From contig JBMFTY010000003.1 in NCBI GenBank assembly GCA_049966795.1, forward strand, positions 3,447 to 67,446: a stretch of 64,000 nt of DNA. Direction: 5' to 3'. Source of the stretch: Thermoplasmata archaeon (GTDB lineage Archaea > Thermoplasmatota > Thermoplasmata > Thermoplasmatales > GCA-001856825). The translations under genes and the position numbers were made by a program. This document shows positions 37,556 to 43,342 of the stretch, in pieces. Numbering within the stretch: position 1 is the first letter of the stretch; every line of letters begins with the position of its first letter. Under the pieces are notes generated by a model that had not been told where the DNA came from, made no database searches, and saw nothing but the letters and a program-made list of their open reading frames with translations.

Positions 37556-39241
37556 CATCTTTTCCTTCAGCCTGCTCTCCTCCTTCCTCCTGAGGGATAC
37601 CTCCGGGGGCTCTTCTCCCGCCTTCATTTCGAAGGAAAGAAGCCTGTTGTTTCTGAAAAGATGGAGTGTGACCCTCTCCCCAGGTCTGATCCACTTCATA
37701 TCGTCAATCCTGAAATTTCTTATTTCCGGAGAAAGCTCCCTTGTGAAGAAATCTGTGAACCTTTGATTATTGACGGCGACGACCTCATCCCCGGAAAGCA
37801 CGCCGGCCTCAAAGGCTGGATACCCTTTCAGGGAGGACTTCACTATGAGCTTTCCGCCGTTGCCGGACAGCACGAGACCCAGAAAGCCGAGAGGCTTCTC
37901 CCCCCTTCTCCTCCTCTCAATGGAATAGCCTATCGTGCTGAGATAGTAATCAAAATCTATCTCCCCCTCCTCCTCCGTCATCTCTCTCACAAGTTCCCCT
38001 CCCCTGCTGCCTGCCAATCCCTCGATATGAAAGATAAGTTTCCCCTTTTCTATCCCCTCTCCACTTGTCTTGAAGTCTGAGTAAAGAAGCCTGAAGAGGT
38101 CATCCAGGCTCTTTTTCCCTTCCGTTTCCTTCAGCAGGAAGCAGTTCAGGGCGAACGCTATCAGCTCCCCCTTAAGGTAGTAGGAGACATAGCTGTTCAA
38201 GATGTTCCCGTCAGGCTTGTAGAGCTTTATCCATGTGTTAAAAGAGGAGAGATCTGCAGGGTATGTGTGTCCCGGCTGAAGGAGGTAGTATTGGATCATG
38301 ACGGCAAGGTGTTTGAAATATTCTTCCTCCGTGACGATCCCAGCCCTCCAGAGGACGAGCCATTCGTAGTACGATGTGAACCCCTCGCTCAGCCAGAGCA
38401 GGTTGGTGTGAACCTCCTTAGTGTAGTCAAACGGACCGAGTTCCCTGGGCCTTATCCGCTTCACATTCCACGTGTGAAAGAACTCGTGCGAGACTATTGA
38501 AAGGAATAGCTTGTAGGATGTGGGATCAGCCAGTTTTCTTCCATCAGTCATTATGGCCGTGCTGTTCTTGTGCTCAAGCCCTCCGTAAATCTCATCAGGC
38601 AGAGCAATTATGATAAACACATACCTCTTGTAAGGCAGTTCCCCGAATATCTTCCCCTCCTCCTCAACTATCTTCCTGAAGTCCCTTACTATTCCTTCCC
38701 GATCCACGGGGATTAATCCCTGCCATGCTATGAGATGTTCCTTCCCCATTACCTCGAATTTCATGCTTTCGAAGTTCCCTATGAGGAATGGGGAATCAAC
38801 GAGCTGATCATAATCCTCCGCTATGAACATTTCAGATTCTTCATCAAGCCCCGTAGCAACACCCTTTGCTCCAAGGTTTTCCAGCCTCACCTCGCATTCC
38901 TCTCCCTTTCTCCCTTCCACATACAGAAATATGCCCGCACCGTTGAGCAACGCGAAATCACCGTTCGCATAGCTGGTCTGGACGGAGAGCTCGTCGCAGT
39001 ACACATAATACTCCACGCTGACCCTCCCCTGTCCCATTAGGGCCCATCTGTTCTTTGACAGCTGTTCGCTATCGCAGGAGGACTTGAAGCCGAAAAGGTG
39101 ACGGGAGAAGTCTCGGACCGAGTAGGAACCCGGCGTCCATACGGGCATCACAACCTCCTCCCTGCCACGGGAAGAGAATTCCATCGTCACGTGCACGATG
39201 CCTTCATGCGAGTCGGAAAGGTCCACTTGATACAGCACCAT
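37544..39241 (-). CDS. M61 glycyl aminopeptidase with C-terminal PDZ domain
   Basis: HEFFHTWNVKRIRP zinc motif with a downstream E, and a C-terminal PDZ-like segment (GD.VVAVNN). Confidence 0.8.
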   Translation of the reverse strand: MVLYQVDLSDSHEGIVHVTMEFSSRGREEVVMPVWTPGSYSVRDFSRHLFGFKSSCDSEQLSKNRWALMGQGRVSVEYYVYCDELSVQTSYANGDFALLNGAGIFLYVEGRKGEECEVRLENLGAKGVATGLDEESEMFIAEDYDQLVDSPFLIGNFESMKFEVMGKEHLIAWQGLIPVDREGIVRDFRKIVEEEGKIFGELPYKRYVFIIIALPDEIYGGLEHKNSTAIMTDGRKLADPTSYKLFLSIVSHEFFHTWNVKRIRPRELGPFDYTKEVHTNLLWLSEGFTSYYEWLVLWRAGIVTEEEYFKHLAVMIQYYLLQPGHTYPADLSSFNTWIKLYKPDGNILNSYVSYYLKGELIAFALNCFLLKETEGKKSLDDLFRLLYSDFKTSGEGIEKGKLIFHIEGLAGSRGGELVREMTEEEGEIDFDYYLSTIGYSIERRRRGEKPLGFLGLVLSGNGGKLIVKSSLKGYPAFEAGVLSGDEVVAVNNQRFTDFFTRELSPEIRNFRIDDMKWIRPGERVTLHLFRNNRLLSFEMKAGEEPPEVSLRRKEESRLKEKMLAG

Positions 39242-39276
39242 CGATCTTCATTACGATGCAAAGAAATAACTTTCCC

Positions 39277-40194
39277 TTAGGACCTGATATCCTCCATGAC
39301 GGAAGAATTATGCCCGTCGATAAGGAGGAATATGTTCTCCGACTTTCTGGTGAAAACGAGAGACCATATAGGGACGTGCACTAGATACATGTCAGCAATT
39401 TCTACGTTCACCTCCGCGGAGAGAAACCCGTGTACCCTACGTTGCAGTCTTCTGATCACCCACTGCTGCAGCCTGATCTTTCCCTCCACCCTCGCCTTTT
39501 CCTCGCCCATGGTACCGTTCATGAGTTTTACCGGACCTGAGAGGTCCTTCGGGGATAGCTCCCTCTTGTTAGAGAGGTTGAAAATGTAATCGGGCGGTTG
39601 ATACTGGTTCAGATTCTCCACTGCCACCACGGGATAACTGACCTTGTCCACGTCCGTGCCAGATTCTATGACCGTTTGCATGCTCACAGTCGGCCCCCCA
39701 AAACCGCCCCTTCCTCCTATGCCCACTCCCACGAATCCCCCAGGGTTCACCTGTTCCCTCTTGTATCTGTATTGAGCAGAATACCCGGCATCAATAACCC
39801 AGTAGGGAACGTAGCTAAGCTCTACCTTTGAAAGGGTGCTCTTCTCGAAGAGGTGCCTGTGGAACAGGCTTCTGTCCAGGAACTGCTTTGATATCTCCTC
39901 CGCCTGCTCCTTCATCGCAACCTTGAGGTCCAGAATGAAATGCTTCTTGACCCTCGACCAGCCGAGGGAACCGAGGGAAACGGATGTGCCGCAGTAGCTG
40001 CACACGACCATGGCTTCCCCCTCGGCAGGATTCAGGGGAGCACCGCAGCTCGGGCATTTCATTTCCTTGAGCACCTCCACCTGGCCTCCAGCTGTCTGGT
40101 CAGGAGATGCAGTTTGGGAATCCTGCCTGGCACCGCATTTTGGGCAGAATACTGAATCGTCCGGAATTTCCGCTCCGCATTTCCTGCAGTACAT
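39277..40194 (-). CDS. double zinc-ribbon protein with uncharacterised C-terminal domain (YdjG-like architecture)
   Basis: CRKCGAEIPDDSVFCPKCG and CPSCGAP...CSYCG, then about 220 aa containing SYVPYWVIDA and a Gly-rich loop GGFVGVGIGGRGGFGG. Its ATG shares 1 nt with the upstream stop (TGATG). Confidence 0.5.
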   Translation of the reverse strand: MYCRKCGAEIPDDSVFCPKCGARQDSQTASPDQTAGGQVEVLKEMKCPSCGAPLNPAEGEAMVVCSYCGTSVSLGSLGWSRVKKHFILDLKVAMKEQAEEISKQFLDRSLFHRHLFEKSTLSKVELSYVPYWVIDAGYSAQYRYKREQVNPGGFVGVGIGGRGGFGGPTVSMQTVIESGTDVDKVSYPVVAVENLNQYQPPDYIFNLSNKRELSPKDLSGPVKLMNGTMGEEKARVEGKIRLQQWVIRRLQRRVHGFLSAEVNVEIADMYLVHVPIWSLVFTRKSENIFLLIDGHNSSVMEDIRS

Positions 40195-41345
40195 CAGCTC
40201 ACCTTCTCACCACAGTTGGGGCAGAATTTCGCCCCAGGGGGGATGTCTGAGCCGCATTTGCTGCACTTCTGGGCGATGGCCTTCCCGCATTCAGGACAGA
40301 ATTTCGAATTCTTAGGTATGTCCTTCCCGCAGTACGGGCACTTCATCGTCTCCGAGCTTCTGAAGTCGTAGCCGCATGATGGACAGAATCTTGCGTTTTC
40401 GTCAACGTCGCTCTGGCACCTCGGGCATTTCTTTGTCTTCCTTTCCTGGGGCTGCGTCATACCCTGCATGATGTTGCTCGCCATGGGATATGCCATCCCC
40501 CCTCCTGCGCCGATACCCATCCCTAGACCCAGACCCGCGGATGCCCCGCCACTAGGATTCTTCGCGGCATCCTCCATCGCCTTGCCAGCCTGGAACTGGA
40601 GGTAGTTTGCACCTACGACCTTCATGCTCGATCTCGTATCGACGGCCTTCTGAACTTCCTCGGGTAGTGAGATACTGAGACCAGAGATTTTGTTTATCTC
40701 GATCCCGTACTGGTCGAATGCCCCCTTAGAAAGCGCCAGGACAGCCTCCTCAATGTTCATAAGGTTAGAGGGAAGGTCCAGAACGGAGATACCCTGATCC
40801 TTCATCTTCCCCAGGACGTTGTAAATGAGAAGAACGATCTGGTCCCTTATCCTATCTTCCACGTCCGCGCTCGTCTCCGCATTGAATGTACCAACGAACT
40901 GGTTGACAAATATGGACGGATCTGATATCCTGTACCTCATTTCCCCGAAAAGTCTTAGCATGACGACATCGAAATCCTTGTCCCTGAAAGCGTAGGGTTC
41001 CTTCGAACCGAACTTTCCATCTATGATCCTTCTCTGGAGGTAGTACACGTATGCCTGCTGCTGAACCCCGGAGAGAACTTTAACGAGCCCACCCACTATG
41101 GGAGCATTCAGGTCCGTGAGAGCGTATCTCCCAGGCCTGTCAATGTACCAGATCGCCTTCCCATCCCTGAAGAACACTGCGGTCTCATCTTCCCTCACGA
41201 CCACGTTGTCGTTCAGCCTGATCAACCTAGGGACCTTCCACATTATGTTTCCCTGCTTGTACTGATCTTCCCACTCAAAAGTGGTAGAACCGAAGAGACT
41301 TCCCCCCTTGGAGGGAATATCTTTCTGCTTTCCACCTAGAGCCAT
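40194..41345 (-). CDS. SPFH/Band-7-like protein (COG4260/PF13421-like) with three C-terminal zinc ribbons
   Basis: The N-terminal 260 aa fit the family pattern (VREDETAVFFRDGK...PGRYALTD...RDKDFDVVMLRLFGEMRYRISDP..F). A Gly/Ala/Met-rich linker follows. The C-terminus has CPRC..CPSCG, CPYCG..CPECG and CSKCG..CPNCG. Confidence 0.8.
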   Translation of the reverse strand: MALGGKQKDIPSKGGSLFGSTTFEWEDQYKQGNIMWKVPRLIRLNDNVVVREDETAVFFRDGKAIWYIDRPGRYALTDLNAPIVGGLVKVLSGVQQQAYVYYLQRRIIDGKFGSKEPYAFRDKDFDVVMLRLFGEMRYRISDPSIFVNQFVGTFNAETSADVEDRIRDQIVLLIYNVLGKMKDQGISVLDLPSNLMNIEEAVLALSKGAFDQYGIEINKISGLSISLPEEVQKAVDTRSSMKVVGANYLQFQAGKAMEDAAKNPSGGASAGLGLGMGIGAGGGMAYPMASNIMQGMTQPQERKTKKCPRCQSDVDENARFCPSCGYDFRSSETMKCPYCGKDIPKNSKFCPECGKAIAQKCSKCGSDIPPGAKFCPNCGEKVS

Positions 41346-41867
41346 CTAAACACCCCCGTAGAGCAAGGTATCCCTGCTGGTGTTCAGCGATGTTATTTCA
41401 TCAACAAGCGCCTGAATCATGGTCAACCCTGAGAAATCCCCGTTTCCAGAGACGCATGACTTCAGAAGGGAATCCACTGCACCTTCAATCCCCTGGATCT
41501 TCTCGAAAATCTTCATGTCAAGGTCATAGAGGGAAGAGATCTTCTTTGCATCAACCCTCACGGGAGGGGAAATACCTGTGTAGCCGGCAGCGTGGTGCTT
41601 CACGGCCTCCGCTGCAGTCTGCATCTTCGATCTTAGTGAGCCGAAATAATCCAAGTTCTTGAAGATGCCATTCCTCACAAGAGCCTGCTCCGCCTCCTTG
41701 AGCTTGGATATGCAGTTCAGCATCCTTTTGTAAAGCTCGTCCTTCAGTATCACGTCCGCATCCCGAAGGTCCTCGTTTACCCTGTAGCCGTGATAACCTG
41801 GGAATATTAGCTGTATCTTCTTTATTATCCCTCTATCTTCAACGACGCTGTCCCTAAGGTCAGTCAT
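41346..41867 (-). CDS. hypothetical helical protein, first gene of the SPFH module
   Basis: 173 aa from the ATG at 41867 (MTDLRDS...). The upstream part of the 211-aa ORF would run into the divergent malic enzyme promoter. The stop abuts the next ATG (TAGATG). No family recognised. Confidence 0.5.
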   Translation of the reverse strand: MTDLRDSVVEDRGIIKKIQLIFPGYHGYRVNEDLRDADVILKDELYKRMLNCISKLKEAEQALVRNGIFKNLDYFGSLRSKMQTAAEAVKHHAAGYTGISPPVRVDAKKISSLYDLDMKIFEKIQGIEGAVDSLLKSCVSGNGDFSGLTMIQALVDEITSLNTSRDTLLYGGV

Positions 41868-41871
41868 TGTA

Positions 41872-41888
41872 CCCCTATTTAAAAGGGG
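41872..41888 (-). promoter_or_regulatory. GC-clamped AT palindrome just upstream of the SPFH module
   Basis: Plus strand reads CCCCTATTTAAAAGGGG (minus strand CCCCTTTTAAATAGGGG), ending 4 nt before the ATG at 41867. A second TATA-like GTATTTAC lies about 23 nt upstream of the ATG. Confidence 0.3.
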
Positions 41889-41980
41889 ATGTAAATACTT
41901 TCCCAAGGATGCCTCACGGGGAAATGAGGGAAATTTGGCCTTGGGTATAGCGCCTGAACACATTCTAACAAAGTTTAACA

Positions 41981-43342
41981 TTGCGCATGCAATACCCTGT
42001 TATGAGGAATGAAGGGGAGTCTGGTAGTGAGAGGTATTCCACTTTGGCTATAAAGTACGCCAGGGAATTCTTGGGGAAGATTCAGACCATCCCAAAGGTC
42101 CCTGTTACAAGTCTGGATGATTTTTCAGTCTGGTATACTCCCGGCGTTGCCGCAGTATCAAAGGAAATTTCGAAAAACACGGACCTATCGTTTGAGATGA
42201 CTTGGAGGTGGAACTCAGTTGCGATAGTCACGGATGGAACACGCGTTCTCGGACTAGGGAACGTTGGGCCAGAGGCCTCTCTTCCAGTTATGGAAGGGAA
42301 GGGTCTGATCTTCAAGTATCTTGGCGGCGTGGACGCGATTCCCATACCTATAAACGTACATGAGAGGGAGCAGATCATCAGCGTCGTTCAGGCGCTGGAA
42401 CCGGCGTTCGGGGGAATAAATCTTGAGGACATAGAGTCTCCGAAATGCTTCTACCTTCTGGAGAAGCTGAGGGAGTCGATGAAAATACCTGTATGGCATG
42501 ATGACCAGCTTGGAACTGCGGGCGCAACGCTCGCCGGTCTCATCAATGCCCTGAAATTGACAGGAAGGAAGGAGAGCGATACGAAGATTGTGGTCGTGGG
42601 TTCGGGTGCGGCAAACATAGCAACCGTAAACCTCCTATCGCACGCTGGCTTTGACCTGAAAAATATCACGATGGTGGATTCCCATGGGATCCTTCACCCT
42701 GAGAGGGAGGATATGGATACGCTGATGAAGAACAACCCCTGGAAGTACAACCTCGCCCTTAAGACGAACGGCCAGAGGAGAAAGGGGGACATCGCGGAGG
42801 CGATGGAGGGGGCTGACGCAGTGGTCGCGGCTTCAAAACAGGGGCCTGGGGTAATAAAGGGAGAATGGGTGAGGAGGATGGAAAAGAGGGCAATCATATT
42901 CGCTCTCGCAAATCCAATACCGGAGATATGGCCCAACGAAGCGAAGGAAAATGGAGCGGAGATCGTGGCAACAGGCAGGTCGGACTTTCCAAACCAGGTT
43001 AACAACAGCCTCGTTTTCCCGGGAGTGTTCAGGGGCGCGCTGGATGCCCGCGTAACCAAGATAAATGAGAGGATGATAGTGGAGGCTGCAAGGGAACTTG
43101 CAAGGTTTGCGGAGGAGAAGGGAATAAGCGATCAGTACATAATACCGACGATGGAAGAATGGGAGGTGTTCCCACGCGTCGCGGCGGCTATCGGGAACTC
43201 GGGGGTCAAGGAAGGCCTGGCCAGGGTGAGGATGAGCAGGGAGGAATTCCTGGAGAGGGCAAAGGAGATAATAAGCGCTAACAGGCTGATCATAGAAAAG
43301 ATGATTGGCATGAAATTGATAAGGAGTGTGAGTGAGATATGA
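41981..43342 (+). CDS. NAD(P)-dependent malic enzyme
   Basis: KVPV....D.S..YTPGVA, GLGN.GP.A..PVMEGK and a Rossmann GSGAA motif. The start codon is uncertain (TTG 41981, ATG 41987 or ATG 42002). Confidence 0.9.
   Translation: MRMQYPVMRNEGESGSERYSTLAIKYAREFLGKIQTIPKVPVTSLDDFSVWYTPGVAAVSKEISKNTDLSFEMTWRWNSVAIVTDGTRVLGLGNVGPEASLPVMEGKGLIFKYLGGVDAIPIPINVHEREQIISVVQALEPAFGGINLEDIESPKCFYLLEKLRESMKIPVWHDDQLGTAGATLAGLINALKLTGRKESDTKIVVVGSGAANIATVNLLSHAGFDLKNITMVDSHGILHPEREDMDTLMKNNPWKYNLALKTNGQRRKGDIAEAMEGADAVVAASKQGPGVIKGEWVRRMEKRAIIFALANPIPEIWPNEAKENGAEIVATGRSDFPNQVNNSLVFPGVFRGALDARVTKINERMIVEAARELARFAEEKGISDQYIIPTMEEWEVFPRVAAAIGNSGVKEGLARVRMSREEFLERAKEIISANRLIIEKMIGMKLIRSVSEI

Follow-up and report, generated by a model that had tools for sequence, protein, structure and literature searches.

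A 64-kb window of the metagenome-assembled genome of a Thermoplasmata archaeon (GenBank assembly GCA_049966795.1, contig JBMFTY010000003.1, positions 3,447 to 67,446; coordinates below are those of the window, the whole stretch of DNA analyzed) contains three tightly packed open reading frames (ORFs) on the minus strand that together span positions 41867 to 39277. An ORF check delimited the three genes, here called g1, g2, and g3, as follows.

41346-41867, minus strand: g1, 173 aa
40194-41345, minus strand: g2, 383 aa
39277-40194, minus strand: g3, 305 aa

An earlier note on this DNA, made from the sequence alone, had described a three-gene unit without spacers, and both of the junctions that it reported, TAGATG and TGATG, were found exactly where it had placed them. 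The TAG stop codon of g1 (41348-41346) directly abuts the ATG of g2 (41345-41343), while the TGA stop codon of g2 (40196-40194) and the ATG of g3 have base 40194 in common. Motifs resembling Shine-Dalgarno sequences, GGGGGTG and AAGGTGA, lie a few bases 5′ of the g2 and g3 start codons, respectively, and are consistent with translation of g2 and g3 being coupled to that of the preceding gene. As documented below, the module is an archaeal variant of the SamGHI-type SPFH system, known from Bacillus, that has neither PspA nor YdjH and includes a new, obligate partner family represented by g1.

The second gene encodes an SPFH protein followed by a triple zinc ribbon, just as the earlier note had read it. 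By profile g2 is clearly an SPFH protein: it matched the Pfam family PF13421 (Band_7_1) with 117.6 bits (E 7.5e-34; cut-off 24), and also PF01145 with an E-value of 4.3e-7. Its features are:

40617-41222, minus strand: SPFH (Band_7_1) domain of g2, residues 42-243 (Pfam)
40458-40550, minus strand: conserved Gly/Ala/Met-rich linker of g2, about residues 266-296
40212-40427, minus strand: three tandem CxxC-x10-CxxC zinc ribbons of g2, residues 307-378 (Pfam)

The linker sequence quoted in the earlier note, GGASAGLGLGMGIGAGGGMAYPM, is present in g2, and the linker glycines G273, G275, G277, G279, and G281 are invariant across archaeal and bacterial homologs. The ribbon spacing given there (x11-12) needs correction, to x10 in these ribbons and x14 in the second ribbon of g3. 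A BLASTP comparison aligned g2 with Bacillus subtilis YdjI (E 3e-12, 22% identity over 316 aa) through the SPFH domain, the low-complexity G/M-rich linker, and the C-terminal zinc ribbon. No transmembrane segment was predicted in g2, whose highest 19-residue Kyte-Doolittle mean is 1.22 (YdjI, 0.70; the transmembrane helix of YdjH, 2.59). A search by sequence for solved-structure relatives of the g2 SPFH domain found none. Judged by these matches, g2 is a homolog of YdjI and a cytosolic SPFH protein of the YdjI/SamI type.

The C-terminus of g2 homologs varies. A helix-turn-helix domain, HTH_17 (PF12728), replaces the zinc ribbons at the end of three of them (locus L009, 6562-7620; L010, 1248-2312; L099, 6567-7616), an Anaerolineales homolog (L008, 6583-7650) has neither a zinc-ribbon nor an HTH_17 tail, and PF13421 is known also as a fusion with SHOCT. 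The C-terminal "tag" of these proteins is therefore interchangeable.

For the third gene, the earlier note had recorded two zinc ribbons and the sequence SYVPYWVIDA, both of which are present, and had left the domain that follows unassigned. The features of g3 are:

39991-40188, minus strand: N-terminal pair of zinc ribbons of g3 (residues 3-20 and 47-68) with the intervening linker (Pfam)
39691-39747, minus strand: Gly-rich loop of g3, about residues 150-168, capping a long beta-hairpin (alignment A3 and AlphaFold2 model)

When the g3 family profile was compared with YdjG by hhalign, the match reached 98.4% probability (E 5.8e-15) over 279 columns spanning both ribbons and the whole alpha/beta domain; hmmsearch likewise reached YdjG with a profile of the g3 C-terminal domain (E 2.9e-6) and with a profile of a one-ribbon variant (E 4.7e-14). 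Given that the match covers the ribbons and the entire domain, the supposedly unassigned region is the YdjG/SamG domain, which Ravi et al. have described as YpeB-related and NTF2-like (PMC11237479). By homology, g3 is thus a YdjG/SamG protein, composed of two zinc ribbons and an alpha/beta domain.

A C-terminal transmembrane anchor was not found in g3, which ends with the aligned domain and has a Kyte-Doolittle maximum of 1.28. Most g3 relatives carry a Gly-rich hydrophobic insert of about 60 residues at the tip of the long beta-hairpin and others carry a C-terminal hydrophobic tail; in the clade of the window, the insert has shrunk to an 18-residue glycine loop. The AlphaFold2 model of g3 shows this long hairpin (strands 120-151 and 170-190) with a Gly-rich tip and low values of the predicted local distance difference test (pLDDT) over residues 156-165. 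A Foldseek search of the PDB with the model returned only TldD/PmbA, beta-pore-forming toxins, and secretins, all non-significant and driven by the hairpin; TM-scores were at most 0.15 where the C-terminal domain (39295-39945) was spanned and higher only in short zinc-ribbon matches. Searches by sequence for solved-structure relatives of the C-terminal domain gave zinc-ribbon matches only.

The earlier note had pointed to a likeness to the B. subtilis pspA-ydjGHI operon, since renamed pspA-samGHI. We located that operon with a published cloning primer, whose sequence served as the search pattern, and the alignments of g2 with YdjI and of the g3 family with YdjG reported above make the likeness one of true homology. 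The SamGHI system and its Band-7, zinc-ribbon, and YdjG architecture have already been described (PMC11237479, PMC8581546, PMC9239133, bioRxiv 10.64898/2026.02.06.704340). In Bacillus, YdjG and YdjH are membrane proteins, whereas YdjI is soluble, reaches the membrane only with YdjG and YdjH, forms membrane foci there, and binds PspA (PMC8581546). SamI restrains SamGH signaling and is predicted to form a higher-order oligomer (bioRxiv 10.64898/2026.02.06.704340).

In both systems the genes form one operon. Like YdjI, g2 combines an SPFH domain, a G/M-rich linker, and a C-terminal ribbon without a transmembrane segment, and g3 shares with YdjG two N-terminal ribbons and the same alpha/beta domain. 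By contrast, the archaeal module lacks both pspA and the TPM-domain protein YdjH and has an additional first gene, g1, that is absent from the B. subtilis operon. Furthermore, g2 has three ribbons whereas YdjI has one, YdjG has a C-terminal transmembrane helix whereas g3 has none, and the Bacillus order pspA, ydjG, ydjH, ydjI differs from the archaeal order of g1, SPFH gene, and YdjG-like gene.

Other SPFH gene pairs offer a parallel in principle. In the SPFH-NfeD operons (FloT-YuaF/NfeD2, FloA-YqeZ/NfeD1b, and QmcA-YbbJ) and in HflK/C-FtsH, as here, the gene of an SPFH scaffold adjoins that of a dedicated small partner. However, their SPFH proteins (PF01145) are membrane-anchored and the partners are NfeD OB-fold membrane proteins or a protease, whereas g1 does not resemble NfeD and is a helical bundle that is soluble.

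Conservation of the module was assessed with g2 in a scan that used one genome per species. Among 584 relatives, the best 80, all of them archaeal, were examined; their loci cover Thermoplasmata, Methanomassiliicoccales, Nitrososphaerota, Bathyarchaeia, Marsarchaeota, and Methanocellaceae. In every one of the 77 assessable loci, g1 lies directly upstream of the SPFH gene (in the remaining three, g2 is at a contig edge), and a YdjG-like gene lies directly downstream in 72 of the 78 loci assessable for it. Fifty-two of these downstream genes are of the two-ribbon g3 type; the other 20 are of a one-ribbon type, typical of Methanomassiliicoccales, that encodes 247 aa with a C-terminal hydrophobic tail and is homologous to both g3 (98.7%) and YdjG (95.2%). 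The order of g1, SPFH gene, and YdjG-like gene is more than a chance arrangement: dozens of independent archaeal genomes share it, and the genes are barely separated, the gap between g1 and g2 measuring 10 nt or less in approximately 43 of 77 loci (start calls are approximate). Nitrososphaerota loci found via g3 also hold the full triad. The earlier note had suggested comparing gene neighborhoods across genomes, and by this comparison the three genes are co-conserved; their gene structure, their homologies, and this co-conservation are established. On the other hand, the note's view that a total of five zinc ribbons is unusual did not hold, as five is ordinary among triads, with four to six ribbons in 67 of 69.

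The triad can also be split. In two loci of one Thermoplasmatota lineage (L004, 9951-10724; L005, 7464-8282), the YdjG-like gene, which matches the g3 profile with an E-value of 5e-37, lies about 2.3 kb downstream of the SPFH gene and beyond two genes on the opposite strand. In some lineages, further small genes accompany the g1-SPFH pair in close linkage: one for a small hydrophobic protein (L004, 5651-5998), one with a faint YccF-like match (L099, 5526-5921), one whose product ends in a YdjG-like zinc ribbon (L011, 1930-2451), and one for a DUF2085 protein in the third slot (L007, 7708-8367). The products of these genes may be lineage-specific membrane anchors.

Contexts anchored on g1 extend the association to bacteria. 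A Band_7_1 gene lies immediately downstream of g1 in eight of ten distinct contexts, namely those of three Thermoplasmata lineages, one Anaerolineales locus, one Chloroflexi locus, and three further contigs (L009, L010, and L099). The other two contain g1::DUF4178 fusion genes (L095, 345-1361; L096, 702-1721), downstream of which come PspA_IM30 and, after it, Band_7_1. DUF4178 is a known component of PspA-polyamine operons (PMC11237479), and the occurrence of this order in two independent contigs ties g1 to the PspA-SPFH network. The g1 domain and a zinc-ribbon SPFH protein of the YdjI type are common to these clusters and the archaeal module. The bacterial clusters differ in the DUF4178 fusion of g1, in a genuine PspA_IM30 gene that separates g1 from the SPFH gene, and in the absence of a YdjG-like gene. 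The gene clusters can be set out by lineage:

Firmicutes: PspA, YdjG, YdjH, YdjI
Some bacteria (L095, L096): g1::DUF4178, PspA, SPFH
Chloroflexi and others: g1, SPFH
Archaea: g1, SPFH, YdjG-like

The YdjI-type SPFH protein is the constant element of all configurations, and its partners vary by lineage. The g1 family is the obligate genomic partner of this SPFH subfamily in archaea and bacteria, and the best-supported reading is that g1 takes the slot of PspA and YdjH in Firmicutes.

The earlier note had taken g1 for an all-helical orphan. The first part of this description agrees with the AlphaFold2 model; the second does not stand, as g1 belongs to a large family. A direct search found 59 relatives, mostly of 173 aa, and when the family profile (alignment A1) was run against 1.84 billion cluster representatives, it matched 1,423 at E <= 1e-3 and 816 at E <= 1e-10. 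The family spans archaea as well as bacteria such as Chloroflexota and Anaerolineae. It is defined over about 170 aa by the motifs PGYxGYRxxEDxRxAD, HxxxGYxG (H..(Q)GY.G), and LYxxD and by a C-terminal arginine, and g1 of the window matches it colinearly over this length with its motifs. Neither g1 nor the sampled family members matched any Pfam family. All 35 sampled members did match NCBIfam NF047596 colinearly (best E 3.7e-20), a narrow Leptospira equivalog named "LIMLP_15305 family protein" that carries no functional assignment; by contrast, g1 of the window scored only 21.9 bits (E 1.3e-4) against a model cut-off of 210. On these alignments, NF047596 is a branch of the g1 superfamily. No study of the g1 family or of the archaeal triad was found in the searchable, incomplete literature (including PF13421, COG4260, and LIMLP_15305), and g1 falls in no characterized family, let alone a well-characterized unrelated one.

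Variants of g1 were also observed. In 15 of 77 archaeal loci, all from one Thermoplasmata clade, a PF13240 zinc ribbon precedes the g1 domain at the N-terminus of the protein (L001, 6001-6732, protein P0053; also L066, L068, L076, L082, L083, and L085), and in these genomes the same ribbon type is found on all three triad proteins. The proteins P0241 and P0315 are fusions of g1 with a long low-complexity tail rich in Gly, Gln, and Pro.

The AlphaFold2 model of g1 consists of five helices, an N-terminal helix and a four-helix up-down bundle (pLDDT 79, predicted TM-score 0.75). A search by sequence for solved-structure relatives of g1 matched only designed helical bundles. When the family alignment is mapped onto the model, the invariant residues fall in loops and helix ends at one pole of the up-down bundle. 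This clustering suggests a binding site, and the conserved pole is thus a candidate for one.

Taken together, these findings make it fairly likely that the region is a three-gene operon encoding an archaeal stress module of the SamI/SamG (YdjI/YdjG) SPFH type, with g1 as an SPFH-binding adaptor or output partner. By homology to YdjI/SamI, g2 would serve as a cytosolic SPFH scaffold expected to form a higher-order oligomer under the membrane, on which g3 would dock as a double-zinc-ribbon protein of the YdjG/SamG type. Because the g3 insert has shrunk to an 18-residue glycine loop in the lineage of the window, any membrane contact of g3 there would be peripheral or made via another protein. The conserved pole of g1, with its two loops (PGYxGYR and GYxG), a stripe of E/R/D residues where helix 2 begins, and a C-terminal arginine, would bind the SPFH oligomer, and g1 would act as a regulated adaptor or output subunit that connects to PspA in organisms having PspA. 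The physical interaction, oligomerization, membrane association, and stress-response role proposed here are inferred, as is the membrane-damage or scaffolding function put forward in the earlier note, which derives from the Bacillus system.

Several observations weigh against this model. None of the three proteins has a predicted transmembrane helix, no segment of g1, g2, or g3 is as hydrophobic on the Kyte-Doolittle scale as the transmembrane helices of YdjG or YdjH, and the operon has no gene for a membrane protein; that the module associates with the membrane is therefore argued from homology alone. The g1 model is of moderate confidence, with pLDDT falling under 65 over residues 1-30 and in the conserved loop at 91-106. 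A PspA hidden Markov model had no match in the window or in the flanks of about 90 archaeal loci, and neither a PspA nor an ESCRT-III gene was found in the window or less than 6 kb from the module at any archaeal locus. Finally, the bacterial g2 homologs with HTH_17 tails hint at a nucleic-acid or regulatory role that a membrane model does not explain.

This last observation leads to an alternative that we consider unlikely, in which the module is mainly a regulatory or nucleic-acid device: the ribbons or HTH_17 tails would have DNA, RNA, or a transcription factor as their ligand, the factor would be sequestered or released by the SPFH oligomer, and g1 would act as the sensor. The swap of zinc ribbons for HTH_17 and the absence of transmembrane segments from the triad proteins of the window fit this explanation, as do the global transcriptional changes that follow SamI loss in Bacillus (bioRxiv 10.64898/2026.02.06.704340) and the assignment of the YdjG zinc ribbon to a DNA-binding type by Popp et al. 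However, small ribbons of the PF13240 type are generic interaction modules, most g3 homologs have hydrophobic or transmembrane segments, and the Bacillus counterparts YdjG, YdjH, and YdjI are found at the membrane, as cited above.

More improbable still, g1 could be a cryptic analog or very remote homolog of PspA/ESCRT-III that polymerizes on damaged membranes and is recruited by g2 and g3. Its gene stands first in the operon, which is the position of pspA in B. subtilis, the protein is all-helical in the model, its N-terminal helix has a hydrophobic moment of 0.39 (0.42 for the N-terminal helix of PspA), and archaeal loci lack a nearby PspA gene. Yet hhalign gave probabilities of only 0.2-0.6% for PspA (0.55% with the E. 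coli protein, 0.23% with a profile built from four PspA sequences) and 0.26% for YdjH against the g1 profile, and g1 did not match PF04012. In a Foldseek search of the PDB with the g1 model, PspA, Vipp1, and ESCRT-III were absent from the top 50 and the best matches were generic four-helix bundles (best E 0.14). On these searches g1 was rejected as PspA or YdjH. The g1 helix lengths of 36, 19, 34, and 25 residues also misfit the long ESCRT-III hairpin. Moreover, g1 and a genuine PspA coexist in L095 and L096, and g1 is therefore no PspA replacement there. Consistent with the earlier note, which had seen no equivalent of PspA or YdjH, none was found in the module or anywhere in the window, and TPM genes (encoding the YdjH domain) were absent from the Pfam-annotated neighborhoods of the module.

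Two further explanations are poorly supported. An M61/PDZ peptidase gene follows g3 on the same strand after a 35-nt gap (ATG at 39241), but its regulation by the SPFH protein, in the manner of HflK/C-FtsH or stomatin-NfeD, is very improbable, given that the linkage is local synteny seen only in the closest relatives L015, L016, L018, and L019 (over 2 kb away in L016 and L018) and absent from every distant locus, and that the peptidase gene has a BRE/TATA-like element of its own. SPFH and zinc-ribbon domains are present in some conflict systems, but an anti-phage defense role is just as hard to credit, as PADLOC gave no meaningful match (weak ones only, confined to zinc ribbons), the flanking genes are housekeeping genes (malic enzyme, GNAT, UDG, and trehalose phosphatase), the GC content of the module (52.5%) is near that of the window (50.5%), and entire archaeal classes keep the module in synteny and as a single copy, in contrast to patchy defense islands. 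Synteny with the malic-enzyme gene is, like that with M61, limited to close relatives.

If the SPFH stress module reading is extended to both domains of life, the g1 family may be an unrecognized ancient core subunit of bacterial and archaeal cytosolic SPFH (Band_7_1/YdjI/SamI) machines, with the archaeal triad as a self-sufficient membrane surveillance system without PspA or ESCRT-III, g1 as its output or effector, and zinc ribbons as a common assembly tag on all three proteins. We put this broader proposal forward tentatively and do not regard it as the likelier outcome.

The SamGHI/YdjGHI system has so far been studied only in Bacillus, and Psp-type envelope stress systems are essentially uncharted in archaea, more than half of whose genomes lack any Psp domain (Popp et al.). 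The SamGHI-type system itself was already known; what is new here is that the YdjI-YdjG pair is widespread in archaea and that, in archaea and bacteria alike, this SPFH subfamily has as its most constant partner not PspA or YdjH, but a helical protein of about 175 aa without a Pfam model, the g1 family. Binding of g1 to the SPFH oligomer and a link between g1 and PspA via the DUF4178 fusions become specific, testable hypotheses, and a minimal, apparently soluble system of three proteins is well suited to reconstitution and structural work. The closest relatives include acid-mine-drainage Thermoplasmatales such as I-plasma; for acidophiles that are probably wall-less, membrane integrity should be critical.

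Sequence elements that may control transcription of the module were found on both of its sides:

41891-41902, minus strand: putative BRE/TATA promoter element GAAAGTATTTAC, ending 23 nt 5′ of the g1 ATG
41872-41888, either strand: imperfect AT-rich palindrome with GC clamps, read on the minus strand as CCCCTTTTAAATAGGGG, 3′ of the TATA box and 5′ of the g1 ATG
39262-39274, minus strand: second element, GAAAGTTATTTC(T), in the 35-nt gap 3′ of g3, ending about 21 nt before the M61 ATG

The sequence GAAAGTATTTA(G/C)A is kept in the closest orthologous loci (L014, L015, and L019), where it ends 22-23 nt before the ATG, and L016-L018 have AT-rich TATA-like boxes at similar distances from the g1 start. 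We infer that GAAAGTATTTAC is the putative archaeal BRE/TATA promoter of the operon; its distance of about 23 nt from the ATG implies that the operon mRNA, transcribed from this element, is probably leaderless. The GC-clamped palindrome that the earlier note had pointed out upstream of g1 is present with perfect CCCC/GGGG clamps, but its 9-nt AT core is self-complementary only in part. It was rejected as an operator, there being no evidence for a regulatory site because the palindrome is not conserved in L014, L015, and L019, which do retain the BRE/TATA element; by this comparison it is lineage-specific.

The second element, GAAAGTTATTTC, nearly duplicates GAAAGTATTTAC, and these two are the only matches to GAAAGT[AT]ATTT in the window. 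It is probably the M61 peptidase gene's own leaderless promoter, and its position about 21 nt before the M61 ATG suggests that this gene is a separate transcription unit; the T-run of the element is a possible end of the operon.

The start of g1 given above is that of the protein ACP5UO_01395 at NCBI, to which g1 is identical. A longer g1 of 211 aa, starting at ATG 41981, was rejected because the first residues of the homologs are equivalent to MTDLRD and nearly all of them have 173 aa. The upstream extension (41868-41987) is an artefact, and the true divergent intergenic region is therefore about 115 nt. The mechanically extended g1 ORF overlaps the start of the divergent malic-enzyme ORF, for which TTG at 41981 was the called start and ATG at 41987 is the more plausible one.

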